A DNA stretch of 64,000 nucleotides. It comes from Escherichia coli (GTDB lineage Bacteria; Pseudomonadota; Gammaproteobacteria; Enterobacterales; Enterobacteriaceae). Below, in pieces: positions 14,398 to 40,593 of the stretch (position 1 is the first letter of the stretch; the number at the start of each line of letters is the position of its first letter). A program made the position numbers and the translations under genes. The DNA lies in assembly GCF_003334305.1 (NCBI RefSeq), contig NZ_QOWS01000021.1, one strand, 5' to 3'. The notes beneath the pieces were generated by a model that worked only from the letters and a program-made list of their open reading frames with translations, made no database searches and was not told where the DNA came from.

Positions 14398-14604
14398 AAA
14401 TCAGACCAGAACGCCAATTACAAGCAAAAATCAACAAAACAGTATTAGTTGATTGTTATCTCTGACTTCATACTCCTGCTCCTGTCAGTGTTTTGGCGTA
14501 ATTCTTCAGTATTCGGTAATCGGTCAAAACAGAACCGGGGAAACGATATAAGCGCAGGCGCACCCAGCGGCGGCGAAGACGCTCTGCCATATAAGACTCA
14601 AACA

Positions 14605-14967
14605 TCATTCATCTCCCAGTTCGGTGATGGTCAGTTCCAGCCTCCCACCTTTGGTAACAGGCATCTTCACAACGCGGTAATCAACGACCTGAGCATCATC
14701 CAGCCAGAAACCTGCTTTGGTGAGTGCGTCAAAAGCGGCTTTTTGCAGATTATCCAGGTCACGGCGACGGCGATCCGGCATGTGGCACTCAATACGGATT
14801 TTCACTGGCATAGCCAGGCCGATATCCAGCATTGCGTTTTTAATGATTCGGGTGACGTTATCGCGGTATGCCTGCCCTTCTGCGCTGATGTGTGTGCGCC
14901 CGCGATTATGGCGGTAATAGCGGTTATTGCTCGGAGGCCAGGGTAATGTGATGCTGTAGGTATTCAC
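14605..14967 (-). CDS. rusA: Holliday junction resolvase RusA
   Basis: 120 aa [38 protein letters not shown]...; matches RusA. Confidence 0.92.
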
Positions 14968-15254
14968 GCCTTAATAACCCCCTCTTTCAGCCAGATAACC
15001 TGCGTTCTCGCCATACCTTCCAGCGCGCATTCTTTTGCATACTCAGCATCGACAAAATATGTGCGGCGGTCGATTTCGTCGTGACAGGCAGAACATGCAA
15101 TGGTGGCAATCAGGTCTGGCGGTTTGATACCGGTACCGCACAATCCAGCCAGCCGGATATGTGCCAGTACTGACGTTTCAGGATTGCCATTACATACGCC
15201 AGGGATTCTTACCTGGCATTCCCGACCACGCGCTGCTTTTCTCAAATCAGCCAT
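14964..15254 (-). CDS. ybcO: YbcO (DUF1364, putative nuclease, Cys-rich)
   Basis: ORF 14964..15293 trimmed to [37 protein letters not shown]...; 96 aa. Confidence 0.85.
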
Positions 15255-15417
15255 GATTCCTCCTTGCTGCCAGTCGCAACCATTTTTTATCAACCAGGCT
15301 AGCGGTATATCCGAGCAGTGTTGGTATTTCGGATGGCTTCAGCTCAGGCTTACGCTTACGACGATTTGATACTCTGTAGATGTGCCCGTTCATGACACGA
15401 ATAAGCGGTGTAGCCAT
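15247..15417 (-). CDS. ninE: NinE
   Basis: Manual translation [56 protein letters not shown] (56 aa); stop overlaps ybcO start; below ORF-track length cutoff. Confidence 0.75.
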   Translation of the reverse strand: MATPLIRVMNGHIYRVSNRRKRKPELKPSEIPTLLGYTASLVDKKWLRLAARRNHG

Positions 15418-15872
15418 TACGCCTCCTGCTTATCGCGCAGCTGCTGGTATTCACAGCTCTGCGGAATTGTCAGGTGGCAGCCGATATTCATCGCCCAGGC
15501 TTCGACTTTGCACAGGAAGATGTACATCTCGCCGGTTTCCAGCTCTGACGTATGGCGGAGGGATTGGACGGTGGTGACCTCGCCGGACACGACATCTACA
15601 CGGTCTTTGCTTTCGTAGCCGAGATAGGTGTGCTTCATCGCGTCTTTGACCCACTCAGGCGTAGCGAAGGTCTTGCCGCGGGCGATGAGATATTCGCTGA
15701 TCTCCGTGTACCACATGTGGCTGAGCGCGTTCTGCGACAGGCTGCGCTTCTCGCGCCACGGCTTAACCTGCAGGCGTAAGCATTGCCCGGCATCCAGCAA
15801 TGGCTGAATCTGCTGGCCGATGGCCGCGAAGTTACCGCGATGGAGTTTGATGCCGTCTACTGGCAGAGTCAT
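15417..15872 (-). CDS. ninB: NinB recombination protein (YbcN)
   Basis: 151 aa MTLPVDGIKLHRGNFAAIGQQIQPLLDAGQCLRLQVKPWREKRSLSQNALSHMWYTEISEY... Confidence 0.88.
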   Translation of the reverse strand: MTLPVDGIKLHRGNFAAIGQQIQPLLDAGQCLRLQVKPWREKRSLSQNALSHMWYTEISEYLIARGKTFATPEWVKDAMKHTYLGYESKDRVDVVSGEVTTVQSLRHTSELETGEMYIFLCKVEAWAMNIGCHLTIPQSCEYQQLRDKQEA

Positions 15873-16136
15873 ACGGCCTCCCTAACGGAAACCGCAGAAT
15901 GCAGAAAATCGCAGGTGCATTTCTGCATCTGTGACAAGGTGATGAGTTCAGATTGTGGTCGCATTTAAGTCCCCTTAAATGCGCAGAAGTCACCGGAGTT
16001 GTTCAGGCTCCGATGAGAGGATTATGGCGGATTGATTACGATAAATCAAAACTATCTTGAAGCCAAAACAGTGATCTTCGCTTTAAAAACCTTGTATACT
16101 TTCACCTAATCACAGCCAGAACTATGGATCTAACCA

Positions 16137-16514
16137 ATGACCAACAAAGAAAACAAAGATAAATATATTAACAAGTTCAAGAAAGAGCTTTCAAAATATA
16201 TACAACCAACTGCTGGAGTGGACATTCAATTATTTAACTCTAAGGATGGTGGTGGTGTAATTAAAGCCACTTTGAATAGAAGTGGAAAAAGAAAATCATC
16301 TATTGCAGGTAATTTTACTAAATTAGGTGAGGCAATTACCTCGAGTGGGCAGAGGGTTTTTGGTGGTGATCTATCAAATGTAAATTTTTACGGAACAAAT
16401 ACGATTTTTGATGGAGATACAATATTTTTAATTAAATCACCTGATTCAGAGGAGTGGTCATCACAAAAAGCTTCCAAAGACGTAGAGGGCATCGTATTTG
16501 GAGGGAAAAAATGA
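16137..16514 (+). CDS. Hypothetical soluble protein (125 aa), moron gene 1
   Basis: ORF MTNKENKDKYINKFKKELSKYIQPTAGVDIQLFNSKDGGGVIKATLNRSGKRK...; AT-rich; opposite strand to neighbours; stop overlaps next gene start (ATGA); no family recognised. Confidence 0.55.
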   Translation: MTNKENKDKYINKFKKELSKYIQPTAGVDIQLFNSKDGGGVIKATLNRSGKRKSSIAGNFTKLGEAITSSGQRVFGGDLSNVNFYGTNTIFDGDTIFLIKSPDSEEWSSQKASKDVEGIVFGGKK

Positions 16515-16939
16515 TTAACATTACTACTAAGGATGGCACTCAAGTCAGTGGTGAAGTAAGAGATCTAGTAATTCTTCTTGAAACTGATGGAAAAACGGTG
16601 TCTGATTATTTGCAGCCAATCCCTCCCAAAAAAGATACACACTGGAGCATGATTTTCATTCCGGTAGCAATTTATATACTACTTAATCTTGTATACATTA
16701 TTGCTCACCCATTATTTCCTGAAAAATATCTAAAAACATCAACATCTATATTTCTATTCATTTCCTTCATATTAAGTGCAATAGTAGCATATTTTGTTTT
16801 CCATAAGCATAAATCTGCCACTCTATCCATATGCAGCTTAGTGTTCTTAGTGTTAATTGTAGGTGCTAACGTAGGGTTTATCAGTTACAGCGACCTAACA
16901 CAAAAAGCGACGCAAAAATTAGATAGTTTGTCTAAATAA
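16511..16939 (+). CDS. Hypothetical membrane protein (142 aa, three predicted TM helices), moron gene 2
   Basis: ATG at 16511 preceded by GGAGGG SD; MINITTKDGTQVSGEVRDLVILLETDGK... then hydrophobic segments WSMIFIPVAIYILLNLVYIIAHPLF, IFLFISFILSAIVAYFVF, LSICSLVFLVLIVGANVGFISY. Confidence 0.6.
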   Translation: MINITTKDGTQVSGEVRDLVILLETDGKTVSDYLQPIPPKKDTHWSMIFIPVAIYILLNLVYIIAHPLFPEKYLKTSTSIFLFISFILSAIVAYFVFHKHKSATLSICSLVFLVLIVGANVGFISYSDLTQKATQKLDSLSK

Positions 16940-17017
16940 TTATGTTGCCATGCGAAGTATGCATGGCTGCATGTCTGCCTTCCATTTAAAATGGGCTAAG
17001 ACCTATAACCCTAAATA

Positions 17018-17731
17018 TTATTCTTTATTATCTTCTTTACCACTTCGCACCATCCCGTTCGACTTGTTGCGGTTGTACTTCGCCTGAAGCAGCTGGATTG
17101 GCGTCGGGCCATGCTCGGCAGCCGGTGCTGCAATCGCCCGGCGCACAGGCGGTACTGGTTTGCCCTCGGTGACGCGCCTCTCCCACATGTCCAGCAGATC
17201 GCCGGCTTCACGCGCCAGCTCACCATGCGTTAACTGGCGCTCTGTGCTGCGGTGGCGCAGTTCGACGCAGATGTGGTACATGACAGGCTGTGACCACGGG
17301 AAATGCTCGCTGGAAGTGAATTCGAAGGAACGATTACGCCAATCCCAGTATTCGGTTATGACTTGGTCAACAGTGATACCTAACGCCCCGCCACTCTGCT
17401 TACACCACGCTACGAACTGGCCGGGCGACGGCAGGAATGGTCGCTCCTGTCGGCGGGCCACGCGCATTCCGGCGTTAACCTGTTCCATTGTGGTGATCCC
17501 GTTTTCCCGGAAAGCCAGAACCCACTGGCGGCGAATTTCGTTCAGTTCGTTCTGGTCACGGTTAGCCAGGCTCGCAGGGAAAGTTGCCAGCAACTGGCTG
17601 AATACACCGTTGATGATCTGCGCTACCTGCTGTACCTGCGGCTTTTCGTCGTACTGTTCCGGCATGTTGTTGGCGATCCGGCGCATCTGCTCACGGTCAA
17701 AGTTAACCATCTGTGCGGCGATGTTTTTCAT
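17018..17731 (-). CDS. P: Replication protein P-like (DnaB helicase loader), lambda-like N-terminus with divergent C-terminal half
   Basis: 237 aa MKNIAAQMVNFDREQMRRIANNMPEQYDEKPQVQQVAQIINGVFSQLLATFPASLANRDQ... matches lambda P over the N-terminal ~110 aa; remainder differs from my recollection of lambda P. Confidence 0.8.
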   Translation of the reverse strand: MKNIAAQMVNFDREQMRRIANNMPEQYDEKPQVQQVAQIINGVFSQLLATFPASLANRDQNELNEIRRQWVLAFRENGITTMEQVNAGMRVARRQERPFLPSPGQFVAWCKQSGGALGITVDQVITEYWDWRNRSFEFTSSEHFPWSQPVMYHICVELRHRSTERQLTHGELAREAGDLLDMWERRVTEGKPVPPVRRAIAAPAAEHGPTPIQLLQAKYNRNKSNGMVRSGKEDNKE

Positions 17732-18657
17732 AAATCCACCCCGTAAATCCAGTCAGTGTTCGTCAGGTCGAGTTTTGGTTTGCCGGCTGTCACGCCAGCC
17801 TGTTGCTTGTTTCGGTTGATTTCGAGCTGGGTCCACTTGTCGCGGAGTTTGGCCGGACTCAGCACGTTACCGGACCAGAAGTTGTCCTGGCAGGCCCAGC
17901 GAAACAGTACACACATGTCGCGGTGGTTACGTCCATCACGTTCACGCATCAGACGGATATCGTTAGCCCACCCTGCAAAATTCGGTTTTCTGGCTGATGG
18001 TGCGATAGTCTTCACCATGTCAAACATCCACTCTGCGGCGGTCAGGTCTTCTGCTGTCCCCCACTTGCTGCCGTTCTGAATCGCAGCATCCGCTTTCACC
18101 ACAGGAAGGTCGTTTTCTGGCAGGTCAGAGGATTCGCCAGAATTCTCTGACGAATAAGGTTTTATATTGTCTTTTGTTAGTTTGTCTTTTGTGTTTACCG
18201 GATTCGGGTAAGTGCCTTTACCTGATTTGGGTAAACTTTTCTTACCTGATTCAGGTAAATTTACCTCTTTCAGGTAAACTTTATTTTTCTTACCTGATTC
18301 GGGTAATGTTGACCATTCACTGACCACATTATTAATGCCTATATTCCGCCCGCTCTGAATAAAAATCCCACGCTTTACCAGAACACTTTTTGCAGCAGAA
18401 CACTTGTGCGGCAATATCCCGGTCAACTCGGAAAGTTGCTCGTTGCTCACCCAATCCAGTTTTTTATTAAAGCCATATGTTTTGCGCATGACAGCCAGGA
18501 AGACCAGAAGCTGGTGCTGTGTTAATCCGGCCAGCATTACAGCTTCCAGCAACTCATTTGCAATGCGCGTATAACCATCATCGAGATCTGCCACGCGCGG
18601 CTCCTTTTGTGCCGCATCCGGCACAGGAAAATTGAATATCTCAGCAGTGTTTGCCAT
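17728..18657 (-). CDS. O: Replication initiator O-like
   Basis: ORF 17728..18747 trimmed to ATG at 18657 with GGGAGG SD (MANTAEIFNFPVPDAAQ...); C-terminus ...ANDIRLMRERDGRNHRDMCVLFRWACQDNFWSGNVLSPAKLRDKWTQLEINRNKQQAGVTAGKPKLDLTNTDWIYGVDL matches lambda O; iterons inside the gene. Confidence 0.85.
   Translation of the reverse strand: MANTAEIFNFPVPDAAQKEPRVADLDDGYTRIANELLEAVMLAGLTQHQLLVFLAVMRKTYGFNKKLDWVSNEQLSELTGILPHKCSAAKSVLVKRGIFIQSGRNIGINNVVSEWSTLPESGKKNKVYLKEVNLPESGKKSLPKSGKGTYPNPVNTKDKLTKDNIKPYSSENSGESSDLPENDLPVVKADAAIQNGSKWGTAEDLTAAEWMFDMVKTIAPSARKPNFAGWANDIRLMRERDGRNHRDMCVLFRWACQDNFWSGNVLSPAKLRDKWTQLEINRNKQQAGVTAGKPKLDLTNTDWIYGVDL
18195..18307. repeat. Replication origin iterons (five ~18-bp direct repeats) inside the O gene, with adjacent AT-rich tract at 18130..18194
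   Basis: tttaccggattcgggtaa, tttacctgatttgggtaaa, cttacctgattcaggtaaa, tttacctctttcaggtaaa, cttacctgattcgggtaat; encode the repeated LPESGKK peptide in O. Confidence 0.8.
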
Positions 18658-18743
18658 AATTCCTCCCGCAATGAGTGTGTTACGATTTGCACCTGAAAGT
18701 CGGTTCTGTTCCCGCAGACCGACTTTCGCCATTTTTAAACCTG

Positions 18744-19289
18744 TCATATTGCCCCCAACATGGTGGTAACCATCGCCATCAATGGACCAGCCAGATCCGG
18801 GTCCACACGAAACATCGACACAATACCTTCACTCATCTCCTTCAGTTTCTGGTGGCGTGGTGCGTTGAGAATGACAGCCTGTTTTGCCTCACTGAGTTCC
18901 TTTTCCATTTCAGCCAACCGAGTCATGAAGCTATCCTGCTCAACCAGGTAACCGCGATATTCCAGCGGTAGTACCGCCAGAATTGCCGGGGTCAGTTCAC
19001 GCACGTTATTTCGGTATTTTTCAGAATCGAATTTGTTATCGAGGAAGCGGAACAGCTTCTGGCGTGCACGGCTGACATCATCAGGGAAATCGATGGTGCC
19101 GCCGCCCTGTGCTCGATACTCATTCACAATGAGTGCGGCAACAACATCCTGATTATCTGCAGCCGACCAGGCGCGGACGGCATCACGGATTTTTTCGTGG
19201 CCTGGCACCTGTTTTGTTTGAGAACGATTTATCACCGCAGTCGGGCTAAATCCGCTAGTCTGTTGGTATGTAAGTGGTTGCATAGTCAT
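18744..19289 (-). CDS. Hypothetical regulatory protein at the cII position (possibly YdaT-like)
   Basis: 181 aa MTMQPLTYQQTSGFSPTAVINRSQTKQ...NEYRAQGGGTIDFPDD...; placement directly downstream of cro-like gene; family assignment uncertain. Confidence 0.5.
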   Translation of the reverse strand: MTMQPLTYQQTSGFSPTAVINRSQTKQVPGHEKIRDAVRAWSAADNQDVVAALIVNEYRAQGGGTIDFPDDVSRARQKLFRFLDNKFDSEKYRNNVRELTPAILAVLPLEYRGYLVEQDSFMTRLAEMEKELSEAKQAVILNAPRHQKLKEMSEGIVSMFRVDPDLAGPLMAMVTTMLGAI

Positions 19290-19313
19290 TGCCTTATCAG
19301 TTAACGCCGCAGT

Positions 19314-19541
19314 TTAGGCGGCAGAATTACTCGCGTTAAACAATGGTGCGAGGTCGGGACGAATATCTGCTGGTTTAATCTTTCCACCAGTGGCTGAGAC
19401 AATTTTCATTACATAGCGGGCATCAATTCCGCCACCGTGTAGCCAACGCCAAACTGTGGGTTGGGCTACACCGCATAGATCTGCCAGTCGTTTTTGACTA
19501 CCTGTAATACTGATTGCGAGTTGAATGGTTTGATTTGTCAT
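19314..19541 (-). CDS. Cro-like HTH repressor (YdaS/Cro family)
   Basis: ORF 19314..19547 (TTG) trimmed to ATG at 19541: MTNQTIQLAISITGSQKRLADLCGVAQPTVWRWLHGGG...; divergent from cI; AGGA SD. Confidence 0.75.
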   Translation of the reverse strand: MTNQTIQLAISITGSQKRLADLCGVAQPTVWRWLHGGGIDARYVMKIVSATGGKIKPADIRPDLAPLFNASNSAA

Positions 19542-19572
19542 TATCAATTCCTATTGGTATTGCAATGAATGA

Positions 19573-19601
19573 ATAATAGCAATGAGTATTAACCCAAGCA
19601 A
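19573..19601 (-). promoter_or_regulatory. Candidate PR promoter (-35 TTGCTT, 17-bp spacer, -10 TATTAT on minus strand) overlapping OR operator repeats
   Basis: Minus-strand ttgctt gggttaatactcattgc tattat upstream of cro-like gene; AGCAAT/ATTGCT repeats overlap. Confidence 0.55.
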
Positions 19602-19615
19602 TAGCAAAACGTGTT

Positions 19616-19643
19616 TTGACCATCAATACGCAAGCGTATAAAT
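19616..19643 (+). promoter_or_regulatory. Candidate PRM promoter (-35 TTGACC, -10 TATAAAT region) giving a leaderless or near-leaderless cI mRNA
   Basis: ttgacc at 19616..19621 and tataaat at 19637..19643; cI ATG at 19652 has no SD, as for lambda PRM/cI. Confidence 0.45.
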
Positions 19644-19651
19644 TAAAACTT

Positions 19652-20344
19652 ATGAAAAAAGAAACTCTTGCTGATCGCTTAAATCTAGCGATGGAACAAT
19701 CTGGAATGTCTCAAGGCGCTCTTGCAAAGGCGTCTGGCGTAGCTCAACCCACAATCTGGAGACTGACAAGCGGCAACGCGCGCGGCTCAACAAAAATTGT
19801 TGAAATAGCTAATGCATTGGGTGTTCGAACAGAATGGCTCTCTTCAGGCATAGGCCCGATGAGAAATGACGGTCAACAATCAGGGAAGCCTGCTGTCAGC
19901 CATTCCAAATACTTCAAAATTGACGTTCTTGATATAGAAGTCAGTGCCGGGCCGGGTGTAATCAACCGTGAGTTTGTAGAAGTTCTACGCTCGGTTGAAT
20001 ACTCGTTTGACGATGCTCGTCACATGTTCGATGGCAGGAAGGCGGAAAATATCCGCATCATTAACGTGCGTGGTGACAGCATGTCAGGAACGATCGAACC
20101 AGGTGATCTGCTGTTCGTTGATATCACGGTTAAATCTTTCGACGGTGATGGTATCTATGCGTTTCTGTATGACGACACCGCCCATGTAAAACGCCTGCAA
20201 ATGATGAAGGATAAGCTGCTGGTTATCTCTGATAACAAGAGCTACTCACCGTGGGACCCGATCGAGAAAGACGAGATGAACCGCGTGTTCATCTTCGGGA
20301 AAGTCATCGGGAGCATGCCGCAGACATATAGAAAGCATGGGTAG
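19652..20344 (+). CDS. cI: CI-type prophage repressor (N-terminal HTH, C-terminal S24 LexA-like autopeptidase)
   Basis: ORF 19616..20344 trimmed to ATG 19652: MKKETLADRLNLAMEQSGMSQGALAKASGVAQPTIWRL... and C-terminal ...VRGDSMSGTIEPGDLLFVD...HVKRLQ (Ser/Lys dyad motifs). Confidence 0.88.
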   Translation: MKKETLADRLNLAMEQSGMSQGALAKASGVAQPTIWRLTSGNARGSTKIVEIANALGVRTEWLSSGIGPMRNDGQQSGKPAVSHSKYFKIDVLDIEVSAGPGVINREFVEVLRSVEYSFDDARHMFDGRKAENIRIINVRGDSMSGTIEPGDLLFVDITVKSFDGDGIYAFLYDDTAHVKRLQMMKDKLLVISDNKSYSPWDPIEKDEMNRVFIFGKVIGSMPQTYRKHG

Positions 20345-20473
20345 AAATCAGAACAAAATTATGCACTTCGCTTTTCAGCTTACTGTAGTAAGGCAATAAA
20401 TTAGGCTTGACGTTAGCTATCAGGTGCACAACAATAATTGTTGAATAATAGGTTTTTTTAACTAGGTGATAAC

Positions 20474-21613
20474 ATGGCAGCGGTTGAATTTCAATTGTCT
20501 AGGAAGATGATTGATTGGATAGCAAATTCTCAAGGAGTTTCTATCGAAACTCTTGCTGACCAAGTCATGCCCAAAAAGATTAATAAATTTCTTAACGGAG
20601 TGGTAAGTAAATCCGCAGCAGAAAAACTGGCAAAAATTGGAGGAATCCCTTTCGGTTTTTTATTTCTTGAAACGCCACCAACTCCAGCCAAACCCAAGAT
20701 CCCTGACTTAAGGCAAGCTATAAATAGCCGTGAGTTAGGAAAAGATTTTTTTGATGTTTACTATGATATAGAATATAAACTTGAGTGGTACAAAGACTAT
20801 TTAAGAGAAAATGGTAATGATGATCCACTCGATTTTATTGGTAAATTTAAATTTAATAGAAAATTAAATTATAAGGTTGTTGCTACAGACATAGCAAACA
20901 CAATACATTTTGATATACAAAAAGAGATAAAAAATGTCACTTTTGAGAGCTATTTTTCTAAAGTGGCAAAACTAATAGAAGACACTGGCGTATTAGTTTT
21001 CAAGAATGGTGTTGTGGGTAATAATAATAAAAGAAAACTTGACACGCGAGAGTTTCGTGGTTTCTGTATATCTGATAGCGTTGCTCCGATCATTTTTGTA
21101 AATAGCTCGGACGCGTTATCTGCGCAGGTATTTACATTATTTCATGAGGTGGCTCATCTTTGGCTTGGAGTCGATGGAGTCTCTGGGTGGGACACAGAAA
21201 AAAACATAGAATCTTTTTGTAATAAAGTTGCTGCTGAAATCTTAATGCCTGATAATCTCTTCAAATCTTTCTGGCTTAATGCATCCAGCGATAATAATTA
21301 TTATCGAGTAAAAGAGGTTTCTAAGTTATTTAAGGTTAGTGATTTCGCTTGTGCAATCAAAGCGTTACAATTAGATTTGATAGAAAGAAACACTTTGGAG
21401 ATAATTAAAGATCAAGCTTACAATAAGCCCAAAAAAGAATCCAATGGTGGTTCTTTCTTTAACACATTACCTGTTCGTAACAGTCCAAAACTTACGAATA
21501 TAATAATTTCCAAAGCAATGTCTCAACAATTACCATTAAGGGAAGCAGGCGTACTGCTAAATGTAAAAGCAGATACAGTTGTTGAATTTTATAAAAAACG
21601 AGAATCTCTATGA
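20474..21613 (+). CDS. HTH (XRE-like) domain fused to ImmA/IrrE-family zinc metallopeptidase (COG2856/DUF955-like), 379 aa
   Basis: AGGTGA SD 4 nt upstream; N-terminal HTH-like segment (SIETLADQVMPKKINKFLNG...AEKLAKIGGIP); HExxH motif in FTLFHEVAHLWLG and downstream E...AAEILMP motif typical of ImmA/IrrE peptidases; AT-rich. Confidence 0.75.
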   Translation: MAAVEFQLSRKMIDWIANSQGVSIETLADQVMPKKINKFLNGVVSKSAAEKLAKIGGIPFGFLFLETPPTPAKPKIPDLRQAINSRELGKDFFDVYYDIEYKLEWYKDYLRENGNDDPLDFIGKFKFNRKLNYKVVATDIANTIHFDIQKEIKNVTFESYFSKVAKLIEDTGVLVFKNGVVGNNNKRKLDTREFRGFCISDSVAPIIFVNSSDALSAQVFTLFHEVAHLWLGVDGVSGWDTEKNIESFCNKVAAEILMPDNLFKSFWLNASSDNNYYRVKEVSKLFKVSDFACAIKALQLDLIERNTLEIIKDQAYNKPKKESNGGSFFNTLPVRNSPKLTNIIISKAMSQQLPLREAGVLLNVKADTVVEFYKKRESL

Positions 21614-22122
21614 TTCATAATGGAAAATTCTTAATTGATAGTAATGTCTTCATAGAGGCAAAAAACTTTGCATATAACTTCAATTATTGCAAAATATTTT
21701 GGGATTTTCTTCTCGCTTTACACATTAATGGTCTGATTTATAGCATTAATGCTGTAAAAAAAGAACTATGTGCAAAAGATGATCCATTGTGTAAATGGAT
21801 TAAAGAAGAGTTACCATCATCATTCTTCGAAGATGAGCATAGTTCAATAGAAAATTATGCAAAGTTAATAAATTGGTCAACTAAATTAGATGTTACCGAA
21901 AAGGCAAAGTTTGATTTTGCAAGCCATGAAAAAGCAGATGCTTTTTTAATAGCCCATGCGATGACACATGGATATACTATTATTACCCATGAGAAACCAT
22001 CCGGTGGCAAACCTAAAAAAAGAATAATGATCCCGGATGCTGCTGCTTCTCACGGCGTTAAGACATTAACACTATATGAATTTCTTCCAAGATACGCTAG
22101 TCATAATTTTTCTTTGAAATAA
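21610..22122 (+). CDS. PIN-like (DUF4411-type) putative nuclease, 170 aa
   Basis: Start overlaps upstream stop (ATGA); N-terminal FLIDSNVFIEA resembles the first acidic PIN strand; ADAFLIAHAMTHGYTIITHEK resembles a later PIN motif; AT-rich; domain call from memory of DUF4411. Confidence 0.65.
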   Translation: MIHNGKFLIDSNVFIEAKNFAYNFNYCKIFWDFLLALHINGLIYSINAVKKELCAKDDPLCKWIKEELPSSFFEDEHSSIENYAKLINWSTKLDVTEKAKFDFASHEKADAFLIAHAMTHGYTIITHEKPSGGKPKKRIMIPDAAASHGVKTLTLYEFLPRYASHNFSLK

Positions 22123-22127
22123 AACGT

Positions 22128-22154
22128 CCCGGCCACCGTGCCGGGTTTTCTTTT
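22128..22154 (+). terminator. Rho-independent terminator after the two-gene cassette
   Basis: cccggccaccgtgccggg hairpin followed by ttttctttt immediately after the stop at 22122. Confidence 0.75.
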
Positions 22155-22276
22155 GCCTCCCCTCATCACACACACCGTTCAAAAAACCACCACAACCCCG
22201 CTTCAGTTATCGCTATGCGATGCAAGTCACAAAATTAATTCTTTTTGCTATCAAATATTTAATATCAAAACACATC

Positions 22277-22323
22277 TAGCAATAGCAATAAGTATTGATA
22301 TCATCAATAGCAATAGCTATTAT
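22277..22323 (+). promoter_or_regulatory. Candidate PL promoter (-35 TTGATA, 17-bp spacer, -10 TATTAT) with OL operator repeats
   Basis: ttgata tcatcaatagcaatagc tattat at 22295..22323; AGCAATAGCAAT repeats shared with the cro-cI intergenic region. Confidence 0.6.
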
Positions 22324-22396
22324 CACCATGTCGCAACAACACAACGATACGGCAATCACCTGATTCACCGTTGCGATGACCGCTTAGATCCGCAGC

Positions 22397-22807
22397 TTGA
22401 ATTTCAGCAGGCTCCGGGGAGTGCGAGGGGTGAAGCGGACGCGTGAACGTCGGTGTGACCAGCTGAAATCAACTCAACACTTCATACCTCAGTCGCTTCA
22501 ACGAGGCGGCTTAGTTATGACAACCGGCGGCCATCCACCGCCTGAATACGCGCAGAAGTCTTTATATGTTCAGCAGCCCAGCTTACGGGCAGGAGTTTTT
22601 ATGGTTCATCAACATTACGGAACGCAGACCGTTAATCGCGGTGCGGTCATGCCAGGAATGCTGGTCAAACACAAAGATGGTACCTGGACTGCATCAGCTA
22701 ATTTACGCGGACGGCTTTATCTGCATCGCGGCATCGAGCGCACTTATACCCGTGATTTGCTCGTAGAAGTTTTTCTCGACGGACGCGGTAACGGCCTGAA
22801 TCACTAA
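22397..22807 (+). CDS. Hypothetical protein, first ORF of PL operon (Arg-rich N-terminus; possible N-like or Kil/CIII-region protein)
   Basis: ORF with TTG start; N-terminus ...RLRGVRGVKRTRERR...; no confident homology recalled. Confidence 0.3.
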   Translation: MNFSRLRGVRGVKRTRERRCDQLKSTQHFIPQSLQRGGLVMTTGGHPPPEYAQKSLYVQQPSLRAGVFMVHQHYGTQTVNRGAVMPGMLVKHKDGTWTASANLRGRLYLHRGIERTYTRDLLVEVFLDGRGNGLNH

Positions 22808-22883
22808 CCCCCCTTTCCTGTTTTCCTAATCAGCCTGGCATTTCGCAGGCGATATTTTCACAGCCATTTTCAGGAGTTCAGCC

Positions 22884-23180
22884 ATGAACGCTTATTACAT
22901 TCAGGATCGTCTTGAGGCTCAGAGCTGGGCACGTCACTACCAGCAGATCGCCCGTGAAGAGAAAGAGGCAGAACTGGCAGACGACATGGAAAAAGGTCTT
23001 CCACAGCACCTGTTTGAATCACTCTGTATCGATCATTTGCAACGCTGCGGGGCCAGCAAAAAAGCCATTACCCGTGCGTTTGATGACGATGTTGAGTTTC
23101 AGGAGCGCATGGCAGAACACATCCGGTACATGGTTGAAACCATTGCTCACCACCAGTTTGATATTGATTCAGAGGTATAA
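22884..23180 (+). CDS. gam: Gam (RecBCD inhibitor), short form
   Basis: 98 aa [52 protein letters not shown]...; matches lambda Gam; upstream in-frame sequence also resembles the long-form N-terminus. Confidence 0.92.
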
Positions 23181-23185
23181 AACGG

Positions 23186-23971
23186 ATGAGTACAGCACTC
23201 GCAACGCTGGCAGGAAAGCTGGCTGAACGTGTCGGCATGGATTCTGTCGACCCACAGGAACTGATCACCACTCTTCGCCAGACGGCATTTAAAGGTGATG
23301 CCAGCGATGCGCAGTTCATCGCATTGTTGATCGTCGCCAACCAGTACGGCCTTAATCCGTGGACGAAAGAAATTTACGCCTTCCCTGATAAGCAGAACGG
23401 CATCGTTCCGGTGGTGGGCGTTGATGGCTGGTCCCGCATCATCAATGAAAACCAGCAGTTTGATGGCATGGACTTTGAGCAGGACAATGAATCCTGTACA
23501 TGCCGGATTTACCGCAAGGACCGTAATCATCCGATCTGCGTTACCGAATGGATGGATGAATGCCGCCGCGAACCATTCAAAACTCGCGAAGGCAGAGAAA
23601 TCACGGGGCCGTGGCAGTCGCATCCCAAACGGATGTTACGGCATAAAGCCATGATTCAGTGTGCCCGTCTGGCCTTCGGATTTGCTGGTATCTATGACAA
23701 TGATGAAGCCGAGCGCATTGTCGAAAATACTGCATACACTGCAGAACGTCAGCCAGAACGCGACATCACTCCGGTTAACGATGAAACCATGCAGGAGATT
23801 AACACTCTGCTGATCGCCCTGGATAAAACATGGGATGACGACTTATTGCCGCTCTGTTCCCAGATATTTCGCCGCGACATTCGCGCATCGTCAGAACTGA
23901 CACAGGCCGAAGCAGTGAAAGCTCTTGGATTCCTGAAACAGAAAGCCACTGAGCAGAAGGTGGCAGCATGA
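23186..23971 (+). CDS. bet: Bet (Red-beta single-strand annealing protein)
   Basis: 261 aa [48 protein letters not shown]...; matches lambda Bet. Confidence 0.93.
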
Positions 23972-24648
23972 TACCGGACATTATCCTGCAGCGTACCGGG
24001 ATCGACGTGAGAGCTGTCGAACAGGGGGATGATGCATGGCACAAATTACGGCTCGGCGTCATCACCGCTTCAGAAGTTCACAACGTGATAGCAAAACCCC
24101 GCTCCGGAAAGAAATGGCCTGACATGAAAATGTCCTACTTCCACACCCTGCTTGCCGAGGTTTGCACCGGTGTGGCTCCGGAAGTTAACGCTAAAGCACT
24201 GGCCTGGGGAAAACAGTACGAGAACGACGCCAGAGCCCTGTTTGAGTTTACTTCCGGCGTGAATGTTACTGAATCCCCGATCATCTATCGCGACGAAAGT
24301 ATGCGTACCGCCTGCTCTCCGGATGGTTTATGCAGTGACGGCAACGGCCTTGAACTGAAATGCCCGTTTACCTCCCGGGATTTCATGAAATTCCGGCTCG
24401 GTGGTTTCGAGGCCATAAAGTCGGCTTACATGGCCCAAGTGCAGTACAGCATGTGGGTGACGCGAAAAGATGCCTGGTACTTTGCCAACTATGACCCGCG
24501 CATGAAGCGTGAAGGCCTGCATTATGTCGTGATTGAGCAGGATGAAAAGTACATGGCGAGTTTTGACGAGATGGTGCCGGAGTTCATCGAAAAAATGGAC
24601 GAGGCACTGGCTGAAATTGGTTTTGTATTTGGGGAGCAATGGCGATGA
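23968..24648 (+). CDS. exo: Exo (Red-alpha 5'-3' exonuclease)
   Basis: 226 aa [50 protein letters not shown]...; matches lambda Exo. Confidence 0.93.
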
Positions 24649-24827
24649 AGCATCCTCACGATAATATCCGGGTAGGTGCGATCACTTTCGTCTACTCCGT
24701 TACAAAGCGAGGCTGGGTATTTCCCGGCCTTTCTGTTATCCGAAATCCACTGAAAGCCCAGCGGCTGGCTGAGGAGATAAATAATAAACGAGGGGCTGTA
24801 TGCACAAAGCATCTCCTGTTGAGTTAA
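24639..24827 (+). CDS. Hypothetical small protein (62 aa)
   Basis: ORF in PL operon between exo and xis; no family recognised. Confidence 0.4.
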
Positions 24828-24991
24828 GAACGAGCATTGAGATGGCACATAGCCTTGCTCAAATTGGAGTCAGGTTTGTGCCAATACCAGCAGAAACAGA
24901 CGAAGAATTTCATACGTTAGCCACATCCCTTTCACAAAAGCTGGAAATGATGGTGGCGAAAGCAGAAGCAGATGAGAGAGACCCGGTATGA
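24800..24991 (+). CDS. Hypothetical small protein (63 aa)
   Basis: ORF in PL operon; no family recognised. Confidence 0.4.
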   Translation: MHKASPVELRTSIEMAHSLAQIGVRFVPIPAETDEEFHTLATSLSQKLEMMVAKAEADERDPV

Positions 24992-25067
24992 CAGCCACGG
25001 AATGCATTTTTCTGGCAGCGGGCTTCATATTCTGTGTGCTTATGCTTGCCGACATGGGACTTGTTCA

Positions 25068-25289
25068 ATGACACCTCAGCAGGAAAACGCCCTTCGCAGC
25101 ATTGCCCGTCAGGCTAATTCTGAAATCAAAAAAGCCAGACAGCAGTTTCCGGATAAAAACGTCGATGACATTTGCCGTAGCGTACTGAAGAAGCACCGTG
25201 AAACGGTAACGCTGATGGGATTCACACCGACTCATTTAAGCCTGGCGATCGGCATGTTAAACGGCGTCTTTAAGGAACGGTTAACATGA
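25068..25289 (+). CDS. Hypothetical small protein (73 aa)
   Basis: ORF 24972..25289 trimmed to internal ATG (MTPQQENALRSIARQANSEIKKARQQF...). Confidence 0.4.
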   Translation: MTPQQENALRSIARQANSEIKKARQQFPDKNVDDICRSVLKKHRETVTLMGFTPTHLSLAIGMLNGVFKERLT

Positions 25290-25381
25290 AAAGCAAAATC
25301 ATCAGGGAGCTACAGGCTCCTTTTTTATTGTTCGCATTCATCCTCAAGCGTATTAACCAACAATTCAGGGATTAATGGAAG

Positions 25382-25600
25382 ATGGCAGACATCATTGATT
25401 CAGCATCAGAAATCGAAGAATTACAGCGCAATACAGCAATAAAAATGCGTCGTCTGAACTACCAGACTGTATCCGCAACTCATTGTTGTGAGTGTGGCGA
25501 TCCGATAGATGAGCGAAGACGCCTGGCTGTTCAGGGTTGTCGGACTTGTGCAAGTTGCCAGGAGGAGATCGAACTTAAGAACAAACAATGGGGACTGTGA
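25382..25600 (+). CDS. TraR/DksA-family C4 zinc-finger protein
   Basis: 72 aa with CxxC...CxxC (HCCECGDPIDERRRLAVQGCRTCASCQEE). Confidence 0.65.
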   Translation: MADIIDSASEIEELQRNTAIKMRRLNYQTVSATHCCECGDPIDERRRLAVQGCRTCASCQEEIELKNKQWGL

Positions 25601-25647
25601 TGGCCTCAAAGCAGCAAATTTCAACATCGTCCAACTGAGGTGTAAAA

Positions 25648-25926
25648 ATGTTCAGAATCATTTTTCCTAACACCTGGTACGTCGACCACCACGGCACTCC
25701 CTGCAAAATCCTGCGTTCTACCCACAACAAAGTTCACTACATCCGAAAAGGCAGAACATGTATCGCCAGCATGTTCCGCTTTAATCATGACTTTGAACCT
25801 GTGAATAAAGCTGATGCAGATCAGATAGCAGAAGAGATCGAAACGGCAGAACACATTAAGAAGTTACGTGACATGCGTTCAAAAAGCAGAGGTAACCATG
25901 GAATCATACAGCCTCACACTCGATGA
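25648..25926 (+). CDS. Hypothetical protein (92 aa)
   Basis: ORF upstream of xis-like gene; no family recognised. Confidence 0.4.
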   Translation: MFRIIFPNTWYVDHHGTPCKILRSTHNKVHYIRKGRTCIASMFRFNHDFEPVNKADADQIAEEIETAEHIKKLRDMRSKSRGNHGIIQPHTR

Positions 25927-26269
25927 GGCCTGTCAGTTTCTTAAGATATCCAGACCAACCGCCACCAACTGGATACGAACAGGCCGCCTACAGGCAACAC
26001 GTAAAGATCCAACCAAGCCAAAATCTCCTTACCTCACAACACGGCAAGCCTGCATTGCGGCGCTTCAGTCTCCGCTGCATACTGTCCAGGTGAGCGCGGG
26101 TGATGGCATAACAGAGGAAAGAAAATGTCACTCTTCCGCAGAAATGAAATATGGTATGCCTCGTATTCGCTCCCGGGCGGGAAACGAATTAAGGAATCTC
26201 TTGGCACAAAGGACAAGCGGCAAGCTCAGGAGTTGCACGACAAGCGAAAAGCAGAACTCTGGCGAGTAG
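25898..26269 (+). CDS. Excisionase-like protein (Xis/AlpA-type HTH); reading frame continues into int
   Basis: [38 protein letters not shown]... directly upstream of int; unusually long overlap with int (about 145 nt), so 3' end uncertain. Confidence 0.45.
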
Positions 26270-27288
26270 AAAAGCTAGGGGATTTACCTGATGTCACTTT
26301 TGAAGAGGCCTGCCTAAGATGGCTTGAGGAAAAAGCTGATAAAAAATCTCTCGATTCAGATAAAAGCCGGATTGAGTTCTGGCTTGAACATTTTGAGGGT
26401 ATAAGGCTTAAAGATATCTCGGAGGCAAAGATTTACTCTGCTGTAAGCAGAATGCATAACAGAAAGACGAAAGAAATATGGAAACAGAAAGTTCAGGCCG
26501 CCATCAGGAAAGGTAAAGAACTGCCTGTTTATGAACCAAAGCCAGTATCAACTCAGACAAAGGCAAAGCATCTTGCCATGATAAAGGCCATTCTCCGTGC
26601 TGCAGAACGCGACTGGAAGTGGCTGGAAAAAGCGCCTGTCATCAAGATACCAGCGGTCAGAAACAAGCGAGTCAGATGGCTGGAAAAGGAGGAAGCAAAA
26701 CGCCTTATTGATGAGTGCCCCGAACCACTGAAATCTGTCGTCAAGTTTGCGCTGGCAACTGGTCTGAGAAAGTCGAACATCATAAATCTGGAATGGCAAC
26801 AAATCGACATGCAGCGACGAGTTGCCTGGGTGAATCCAGAAGAGAGCAAATCAAACCGCGCCATTGGTGTGGCGCTGAACGATACCGCCTGTAAAGTGTT
26901 GCGTGATCAAATAGGCAAGCATCACAAATGGGTGTTTGTACATACCAAGGCGGCTAAGCGAGCAGATGGAACATCAACGCCTGCGGTCAGGAAGATGCGC
27001 ATCGACAGCAAGACATCATGGCTATCAGCTTGTCGTCGTGCAGGAATTGAAGATTTCCGTTTCCATGACCTCAGACACACCTGGGCAAGCTGGCTGATTC
27101 AGTCAGGCGTCCCATTATCAGTGCTTCAGGAAATGGGCGGATGGGAGTCCATAGAAATGGTTCGTAGGTATGCTCACCTTGCGCCTAATCATTTGACAGA
27201 GCATGCGAGGAAAATAGACGACATTTTTGGTGATAATGTCCCAAATATGTCCCACTCTGGAATTATGGAGGATATAAAGAAGGCGTAA
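26125..27288 (+). CDS. intD: Tyrosine integrase (IntD/DLP12 type)
   Basis: 387 aa [38 protein letters not shown]... with C-terminal ...[16 protein letters not shown]...RRYAHL catalytic motifs; adjacent to tRNA-Arg. Confidence 0.92.
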
Positions 27289-39019: not shown

Positions 39020-39529
39020 ATGTCTTCCCGCAATAATCCGGCGCGTGTCGCCATCGTGATGGGGTCCAAAAGCGACTGGGCTACCATGCAGTTCGCCGCC
39101 GAAATCTTCGAAATCCTGAATGTCCCGCACCACGTTGAAGTGGTTTCTGCTCACCGCACCCCCGATAAACTGTTCAGCTTCGCCGAAAGCGCCGAAGAGA
39201 ACGGTTATCAGGTGATTATTGCGGGCGCAGGTGGCGCAGCGCACCTGCCAGGCATGATTGCCGCCAAAACGCTGGTGCCGGTGCTGGGCGTGCCAGTACA
39301 GAGCGCCGCACTGAGCGGTGTCGATAGCCTCTACTCCATCGTACAAATGCCGCGCGGCATTCCGGTGGGTACGCTGGCGATTGGTAAAGCTGGCGCGGCA
39401 AACGCGGCATTACTGGCAGCACAAATTCTCGCGACTCACGATAAAGAGCTACACCAGCGTCTGAATGACTGGCGCAAAGCCCAGACCGACGAAGTGCTGG
39501 AAAACCCGGACCCGCGAGGTGCGGCATGA
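39020..39529 (+). CDS. purE: N5-carboxyaminoimidazole ribonucleotide mutase PurE
   Basis: ORF 38993..39529 trimmed to ATG 39020 with [59 protein letters not shown]... Confidence 0.95.
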
Positions 39530-40593
39530 AACAGGTTTGCGTCCTCGGTAACGGGCAGTTAGGCCGTATGCTGCGTCAGGCAGGCGAACCGTTAGGCATT
39601 GCTGTCTGGCCGGTCGGGCTGGACGCTGAACCGGCGGCGGTGCCTTTTCAACAAAGCGTGATTACCGCTGAGATCGAACGCTGGCCGGAAACCGCATTAA
39701 CCCGCGAGCTGGCGCGTCATCCGGCCTTTGTGAACCGCGATGTGTTCCCGATTATTGCCGACCGTCTGACTCAGAAGCAGCTTTTCGATAAGCTCCACCT
39801 GCCGACCGCACCGTGGCAGTTACTTGCCGATCGCAGCGAGTGGCCTGCGGTGTTTGAGCGTTTAGGTGAACTGGCGATTGTTAAGCGTCGCACTGGTGGC
39901 TATGACGGTCGCGGTCAATGGCGTTTACGTGCCAATGAAACCGAACAGTTACCGGCAGAGTGTTACGGCGAATGTATTGTCGAGCAGGGCATTAACTTCT
40001 CTGGTGAAGTGTCGCTGGTTGGCGCACGCGGATTTGATGGCAGCACCGTGTTTTATCCGCTGACGCATAACCTGCATCAGGACGGTATTTTGCGCACCAG
40101 CGTCGCTTTTCCGCAGGCCAATGCGCAGCAGCAAGCGCAAGCCGAAGAGATGCTGTCGGCGATTATGCAGGAGCTGGGCTATGTGGGCGTGATGGCGATG
40201 GAGTGTTTTGTCACCCCGCAAGGTCTGCTGATCAACGAACTGGCACCGCGTGTGCATAACAGCGGTCACTGGACACAAAACGGTGCCAGCATCAGCCAGT
40301 TTGAGCTGCATCTGCGGGCGATTACCGATCTGCCGTTACCGCAACCGGTAGTGAATAGTCCGTCGGTGATGATCAACCTGATTGGTAGCGATGTGAATTA
40401 TGACTGGCTGAAACTGCCGCTGGTGCATCTGCACTGGTACGACAAAGAAGTCCGTCCGGGGCGTAAAGTGGGGCATCTGAATTTGACCGACAGCGACACA
40501 TCGCGTCTGACTGCGACGCTGGAAGCCTTAATCCCGCTGCTGCCGCCGGAATATGCCAGCGGCGTGATTTGGGCGCAGAGTAAGTTCGGTTAA
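39526..40593 (+). CDS. purK: N5-carboxyaminoimidazole ribonucleotide synthase PurK
   Basis: 355 aa [36 protein letters not shown]...; ATP-grasp; overlaps purE stop. Confidence 0.95.

Follow-up and report, generated by a model that had tools for sequence, protein, structure and literature searches.

Among the closest described systems for the gene considered here is the replication protein P of phage lambda, for which solved structures are available (PDB 6BBM, 8V9T, 9OA1 and 8V9S). According to a cryo-EM and crystal study of 2025 (PMC12661323), lambda P is composed of four domains: domain I (residues 1-29) is an N-terminal lasso; domain II (30-119) forms the pentameric P ensemble and includes the ssDNA-crosslinking residue F99; domain III (120-192) binds a patch that spans two DnaB CTDs, with about 1600 Å2 buried; and domain IV (193-233) is a C-terminal lasso placed on the DH-LH elements, with about 1400 Å2 buried. 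Genetic studies of lambda P have assigned O binding to its N-terminal part and DnaB binding to its C-terminal part (PMC6022878, PMC4926192).

A second type of P protein is represented by gp14 of phi80 and by the related proteins of HK639, HK225 and mEp237 ("replication protein 14"), in which a phi80-type N-terminal part is paired with gp15. Both types derive from E. coli phages, and their replication modules show no helicase gene belonging to the phage. Laboratory hybrids of lambda with phi80 and of lambda with 82, and a "chain of interactions" model, were reportedly described by Furth, McLeester and Dove in 1978 and by Furth and Yates in 1978 (both cited in PMC6022878). The classical hybrids are said to have crossed over inside O. 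In the model, the N-terminal domain of O recognizes ori, the C-terminal domain of O contacts the N-terminal part of P, and the C-terminal part of P contacts the host DnaB.

The P gene analysed here is located in a stretch of 64,000 nucleotides of E. coli DNA (contig NZ_QOWS01000021.1 of assembly GCF_003334305.1), which is referred to as the window. It is a single intact ORF with an ATG start that occupies 17018..17731 on the minus strand and encodes 237 aa, the coordinates being the same as those given, with no strand named, by an earlier inspection of the letters without database searches (the sequence-only reading). The gene is directly downstream of, and coupled to, an O-type initiator gene that holds an iteron origin, and its start overlaps the stop of the O-like gene by 4 nt, as in lambda. 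A lambdoid prophage of E. coli strain A7 matches the surrounding segment (window 8020-26731) at 99.989% identity, and the gene is annotated there as "replication protein P"; this prophage adjoins intD, and its late-region genes include quuD, essD, rrrD, rzoD and nohD, which bear DLP12 names.

Judged from its sequence, the product is a member of the lambda family of helicase loaders. The whole protein matches the Pfam family PF06992 (Phage_lambda_P) with an E value of 1.8e-48 (residues 38-195, model positions 1-161 of 162), the "P-like helicase loader" profile phrog_109 with an E value of 4e-89 (residues 1-227 aligned to profile positions 1-235 of 236), and the lambda P chain 8v9t_V with an E value of 1.6e-77. 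The Pfam search of the protein returned PF06992 alone, with no AAA+ or other domain, and the search of NCBIfam, which holds no model for P, gave no match. A DnaC/DnaI-type AAA+ helicase loader was considered as a candidate and excluded, because the AAA+ ATPase domain is absent. Taken on its own, the protein is a lambda P family member that has been annotated correctly and shows well-known mosaicism, and it matters little; what is new is that it is a recombinant member of this well-known family, a natural hybrid of two known versions of P.

The lambda-type character of the front half, proposed in the sequence-only reading, is borne out by the alignment. Residues 1-110 are identical to those of lambda P (NC_001416) at 108 of 110 positions, with 99% identity over residues 1-93, and F99 is retained; the same N-terminal part is 65% identical to phi80 gp14 (NC_021190). 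The proposed sharp boundary near residue 110 is also found, as the identity to lambda P falls to about 25% past the FVAWC motif. Residues 112-131 of the window protein are the peptide (QSGGALGITVDQVITEYWDW) that was quoted in the sequence-only reading.

The position of the switch was examined at informative sites, defined as positions at which lambda has a base found in neither phi80 nor HK639. Over nt 1-270 of the gene, 67 of the 73 informative sites are lambda-type, and over nt 271-690, phi80-type bases occupy 176 of 195, a contrast along P that is far beyond chance. The lambda-type part delimited by these sites and by identity comprises 17468..17731 on the minus strand (gene nt 1-264, codons 1-88) and is 99% identical to lambda P in protein and 96.3% in DNA. 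It is followed by a crossover interval at 17453..17468 (minus strand; gene nt 264-279, codons 88-93, GMRVARRQ), within which the informative sites change from lambda-type to phi80-type, and then by the phi80 gp14-type part at 17048..17453 (minus strand; gene nt 279-684), which is recognized by identity, informative sites and predicted fold. The last nine codons (RSGKEDNKE) and the TAA stop, at 17018..17047 on the minus strand, are beyond the homology to phi80 and HK639 gp14.

When compared with gp14, the C-terminal half is 93% identical to that of phi80 and 97% to that of HK639 in protein, and 87-88% identical in DNA, and its length equals that of gp14 up to the original stop. By its identity over residues 111-228 and by its phi80-type informative sites, this half belongs to the phi80 gp14 subtype; the whole protein falls outside the subtype because its N-terminal part is not of the phi80 type (65% identity to phi80 vs 99% to lambda). 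Unlike the phi80 gp14 relatives, the window protein carries a lambda-type N-terminal part that is paired with a lambda-type C-terminal domain of O, and its stop codon has been replaced. The combination of a lambda-type N-terminal part with a phi80-type C-terminal half was absent from deposited phage genomes, in which the phi80-type C-terminal half occurs only with a phi80-type N-terminal part (phi80, HK225, mEp237 and HK639), and the lambda-type N-terminal part occurs with other C-terminal halves.

The low similarity of the back half to lambda P had led to the claim that its terminal residues, about 125 in number, constitute an unrelated domain grafted onto a lambda-type front, offering a new route of helicase recruitment. 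At the pairwise level the impression of a mismatch was accurate, since BLASTP of the C-terminal half of the window protein against that of lambda P alone gave no alignment, and an identity of only about 25% is in keeping with the same claim. The blank BLASTP result was rejected as evidence of non-homology in view of profile, bridging-sequence and fold tests. The C-terminal half by itself matches PF06992 through to the end of the model (E 4.1e-12, model positions 80-161 of 162), and the whole protein holds no second Pfam domain. An exhaustive phmmer search with this half retrieved 66 cluster representatives, the full-length ones being P-like proteins of about 210-260 aa that match at the corresponding position. 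Intermediate sequences join the two types of C-terminal half: P0157 matches that of the window protein with an E value of 7e-10 and that of lambda with 6.6e-27, and P0125 gives 1e-35 and 3e-6, respectively. Within an alignment of 23 family sequences, the invariant residues G118, W146, Y152, E171, G190 and P194 of the C-terminal half are common to lambda P.

Structural modelling is in line with this assignment. The single-chain AlphaFold2 model contains helices at residues 121-137, 149-165 and 169-188 (pLDDT about 90) and a terminal helix at 211-224, its confidence being low over the N-terminal 30 residues. All significant Foldseek matches of the model in the PDB are lambda P chains (9oa1_Z with an E value of 2e-17), and superposition on the crystal structure of lambda P domain III (8v9s) gives a TM score of 0.89 and an rmsd of 1.1 Å at 23% identity. 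The C-terminal half is thus homologous to lambda P, the very outcome that the sequence-only reading had named as telling against its own claim, and the description of this half as unrelated is refuted by the PF06992 match, the bridging sequences, the fold match at 1.1 Å and the identity of 93-97% to gp14 of phi80 and HK639. A grafted foreign domain is accordingly barely credible as an explanation.

The comparison with lambda P can be summarized by domain. The window protein resembles it in residues 1-110, in its PF06992 and phrog_109 membership, in its gene position and 4-nt overlap with O, and in the possession of F99, and is predicted by the model to share the helical domain II, the three-helix domain III and the terminal helix. 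It differs from lambda P in residues 111-228 (about 25% identity), in a shorter linker before the terminal helix, in a foreign tail of 9 aa, and in the absence of ren downstream. The phi80 gp14-type part is made up of a conserved linker (RPFLPSPGQFVAWC), the three-helix domain III (residues 121-188) and the helix of the C-terminal lasso (211-224), and both the domain III fold and the lasso helix are predicted to be as in the solved structures of lambda P. Given the domain limits of lambda P, the window protein is composed of lambda-type domains I and II and phi80-type domains III and IV, with the crossover placed just upstream of the domain II/III boundary. The suggestion in the sequence-only reading that the exchanged part is the one that engages DnaB therefore agrees with the published structure, as this part corresponds to domains III (120-192) and IV (193-233) of lambda P (PMC12661323).

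The setting of the crossover gives an indication of its origin. Genes of the lambda and phi80 types are 62-82% identical over nt 1-330 of P and essentially unalignable further on; around the crossover their DNA is still 70-76% identical, after which the identity drops to 20-50%. Because the parental types cannot be aligned beyond nt 330, the crossover is situated in the last stretch that would permit homologous recombination, which fits the way in which Rad52-like recombinases of phages are described to form mosaics at conserved stretches (PMC3945230). The gene is a natural recombinant of two known versions of P, an instance of textbook lambdoid mosaicism and not a fusion to an unrelated domain. 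Rapid divergence of the C-terminal half in situ was excluded by its near-identity to phi80 and HK639 and by the abruptness of the switch, and an assembly artefact was excluded by the presence of the allele in 186 complete genomes. A synthetic query for the reciprocal chimera (phi80-type N-terminal part with lambda-type C-terminal half) found none, the best match, at 89.7%, being at the level of plain lambda-type sequences, which makes this a weak test. Overall, the gene very probably encodes a functional lambda-family helicase loader that was born of homologous recombination between lambda-type and phi80-type P genes.

The lambda-like DNA is not confined to P. A block of 792 bp at 17403..18194 on the minus strand (window 18194-17403), found by BLASTN, is 93.6% identical to lambda 39119-39910 and comprises the AT-rich region of ori, the P-binding C-terminal half of O and the N-terminal part of P; it begins directly past the position of iteron 4 of ori-lambda. 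The O-like initiator gene occupies 17728..18747 on the minus strand (TIGR01610, phage_O_Nterm, E 2.2e-23), and its product combines a non-lambda N-terminal DNA-binding domain with a lambda-type C-terminal domain. Residues 200-339 of the window O are nearly identical to the C-terminal residues of lambda O, about 140 in number, and their lambda counterpart is covered by the O construct 156-299 used in the structural study (PMC12661323). Two starts of the O gene have been annotated, an upstream ATG in E. coli 536 (339 aa) and a start at 18657, 30 codons later, in the RefSeq annotation of A7 (309 aa), the latter corresponding to the start of lambda O.

Five palindromic iterons with the consensus TTACCTGATTCAGGTAA were found inside O at 18190..18306 by a search for repeats and inverted repeats. 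They are spaced by 19-29 bp and encode a repeated LPESGKK peptide motif in O. Their consensus is unlike that of the lambda iterons, and the lambda-like DNA begins just beyond the array, which is an origin with non-lambda specificity.

A prophage of E. coli 536 carries a second chimeric allele that helps to define the exchanged unit. Between the two prophages, the sole diverged segment is window 18228-17480 (86-95% identity), and the flanks are about 100% identical, extending on one side through the iteron region to about 18530 and on the other through the C-terminal half of P and the AT-rich insert to about 15930. Within P, the window and 536 alleles differ at 30 positions, all of which fall within nt 9-249, and nt 250-714 are free of differences. 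Since the divergence is confined to the block, the C-terminal domain of O and the N-terminal part of P appear to form an exchangeable cassette with ends inside both genes, and the pattern points to repeated exchange of this cassette with common end points.

From homology, and from the co-inheritance of the C-terminal domain of O with the N-terminal part of P, we infer that the protein binds both DnaB and O, and its mechanism is most likely the standard lambda scheme. O would bind the five iterons, and the N-terminal part of P would dock on the C-terminal domain of O through a matched lambda-type contact, which would be kept matched by the transfer of the C-terminal domain of O and domains I and II of P in one contiguous lambda-like block. 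The phi80-type part, which is homologous to, and has diverged from, the segment of lambda P clamping the DnaB CTD interfaces and the DH-LH elements, would then capture the host DnaB through domains III and IV, open it, and bring it to the melted origin. The chain-of-interactions logic would be common to the classical hybrids and to the window, as intragenic crossovers keep matched contact pairs in both; unlike those hybrids, the window has a natural second crossover within P, at the domain II/III border.

The 3' end of the gene bears on whether the loader is still active. Homology to phi80 and HK639 stops exactly at their TGA, where the window reads CGA and continues for nine codons; the resulting tail, absent from phi80 and HK639 gp14, is made where an AT-rich insert meets the gene, and residues 231-237 are predicted by AlphaFold2 to be disordered (pLDDT below 50). 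The C-terminal helix is predicted to be shorter than that of lambda P and to be followed by this foreign tail of 9 aa, which is a point against a fully functional recombinant loader. Lambda P lethality was not abolished by a C-terminal tag of 66 residues (PMC3640518), and a tail of 9 aa is therefore unlikely to disable the protein.

Selection on the gene was estimated from dN/dS. For the C-terminal half the ratio is 0.042 against phi80 and 0.022 against HK639, at a dS of about 0.7, and for the N-terminal part it is 0.026 against lambda, so strong purifying selection is evident in both halves (dN/dS 0.02-0.04); this selection could largely predate the recombination event. The ratio between the window allele and the chimeric allele of 536 is 0.018, a value that is silent on selection on the C-terminal half after recombination, the two alleles being identical there. 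Among 5,426 complete E. coli genomes, 186 carry the P allele in intact form; the exact window protein occurs in 387 contigs and its 99% variant in at least 1,000. The intact ORF with its 4-nt O/P overlap, the conservation of F99, the selection and the spread argue for a loader that is probably active.

It might instead be supposed that the prophage is defective and the gene a relic within it, its loader function lost and its mosaic structure a by-product of recombination between prophages. Such a supposition could draw on the DLP12 integrase and late-region genes of the prophage, on the pseudogenes present in its lysis cassette, on the AT-rich insert in place of ren with the loss of the original stop codon, and on the occurrence of the allele in no cultured phage. 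It is nevertheless improbable, because the ORF is intact across hundreds of genomes, dN/dS is 0.02-0.04, the O gene and the iterons are undamaged, as is the translationally coupled O/P overlap, and the added tail, for the reason given above, would hardly be disabling.

Combinations of this kind are not limited to the window. P0073 (228 aa, 932 contigs) is a second common chimeric P in prophages; it has a lambda-type N-terminal part, and its domain III is identical to that of the window protein to about residue 163, where it passes into a tail (GKPIPPVRKQISAPRHVPGPTPAQLL...) common to P0128-type loaders. This change of tail means that there was another crossover close to the border of domains III and IV. 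The loaders of P0128 and PPompW prophages are about 50% identical to the window protein in the C-terminal half and cover PF06992 model positions 50-161, and they differ from it in their N-terminal residues (about 75) and in a neighbouring initiator that is not O-like. The tail GKPIPPVRKQIxAPRHVPGPTP is common to P0128-type loaders and the P0073 class, and the window protein has GKPVPPVRRAIAAPAAEHGPTP instead. Considering the combinations in the window, P0073 and P0128, shuffling by domain seems to be general in the P family. As a side observation, the P-like gene of phage PPompW_EH2246 (2330-2857) is annotated as 140 aa, and its frame is open for at least 35 codons upstream and encodes a family-typical sequence with the motif WPPDLAEFV; the annotated start is probably too far downstream.

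It can be asked whether the exchange altered function, with phi80-type domains III and IV engaging or releasing DnaB in a manner unlike the lambda type and the chimera being selected because it joins a lambda-type O-P contact to another module for handling the helicase. Possible candidates for the altered property include the response to dnaB (groP/grp) alleles, the requirement for DnaK/DnaJ/GrpE, P-lethality and exclusion functions. In favour of this proposal, the swapped segment coincides exactly with the part of lambda P that provides DnaB contact sites 3 and 4, the lambda P-resistant DnaB allele E426K maps to contact site 3, the two types are only about 25% identical even though both come from E. 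coli phages and presumably face one host DnaB, the junction has been reused in independent exchanges, and the P0073 class shows a further mosaic at the domain III/IV border. However, a search of the literature on phi80 gp14, groP/DnaB specificity and mosaic P proteins found nothing specific and turned up no functional data on phi80 gp14 or the chimera, neutral mosaicism at the edge of homology accounts equally well for the pattern, and the chimera is a minority type (186 genomes vs about 3,100 with a lambda-type C-terminal half). That the exchange altered function is considered rather unlikely. Replication of the phi80 type presumably differs from that of lambda on groP hosts, a point that is given no weight as evidence here.

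A broader and somewhat more doubtful proposal is that the borders between P domains (II/III and, in P0073, III/IV) act as recurrent recombination joints at which the initiator-docking part is re-paired with alternative DnaB modules, the phi80-type module altering the dependence on DnaB alleles or on release by DnaK/DnaJ/GrpE. If this were true, natural chimeras would be ready-made probes of the B6P5 loading mechanism. The gene has a modest value as a natural experiment, with the crossover just upstream of the domain II/III border and the O-P contact pair travelling as a cassette; comparison of two DnaB-binding modules that are about 25% identical and derive from phages of one host could reveal the contacts essential for opening DnaB.

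Two further features of the prophage were observed. An AT-rich island (window 15950-17040; GC about 0.33 vs about 0.55 on either side) separates P from ybcN, at the site of lambda ren, and is about 100% conserved with the prophage of E. coli 536; the last nine codons of P come from its edge. It contains two ORFs on the strand opposite to P, at 16137-16514 (+) and 16511-16939 (+), which encode a soluble protein of 125 aa (phrog_18061) and a hydrophobic, probably membrane protein of 142 aa (phrog_16940); PADLOC and NCBIfam searches with both ORFs gave no matches. The island resembles a moron and may serve as a cassette for exclusion or defence. On the other side of the replication genes, an ImmA/IrrE-family metallopeptidase (379 aa, window 20474-21613, plus strand) and a DUF4411 protein adjoin an XRE/CI-like repressor (19616-20344), and the same neighbourhood is present in strain A7 (locus L003, 4610-6258), an arrangement that suggests an ImmA-type anti-repressor or induction module replacing the lambda rex region.
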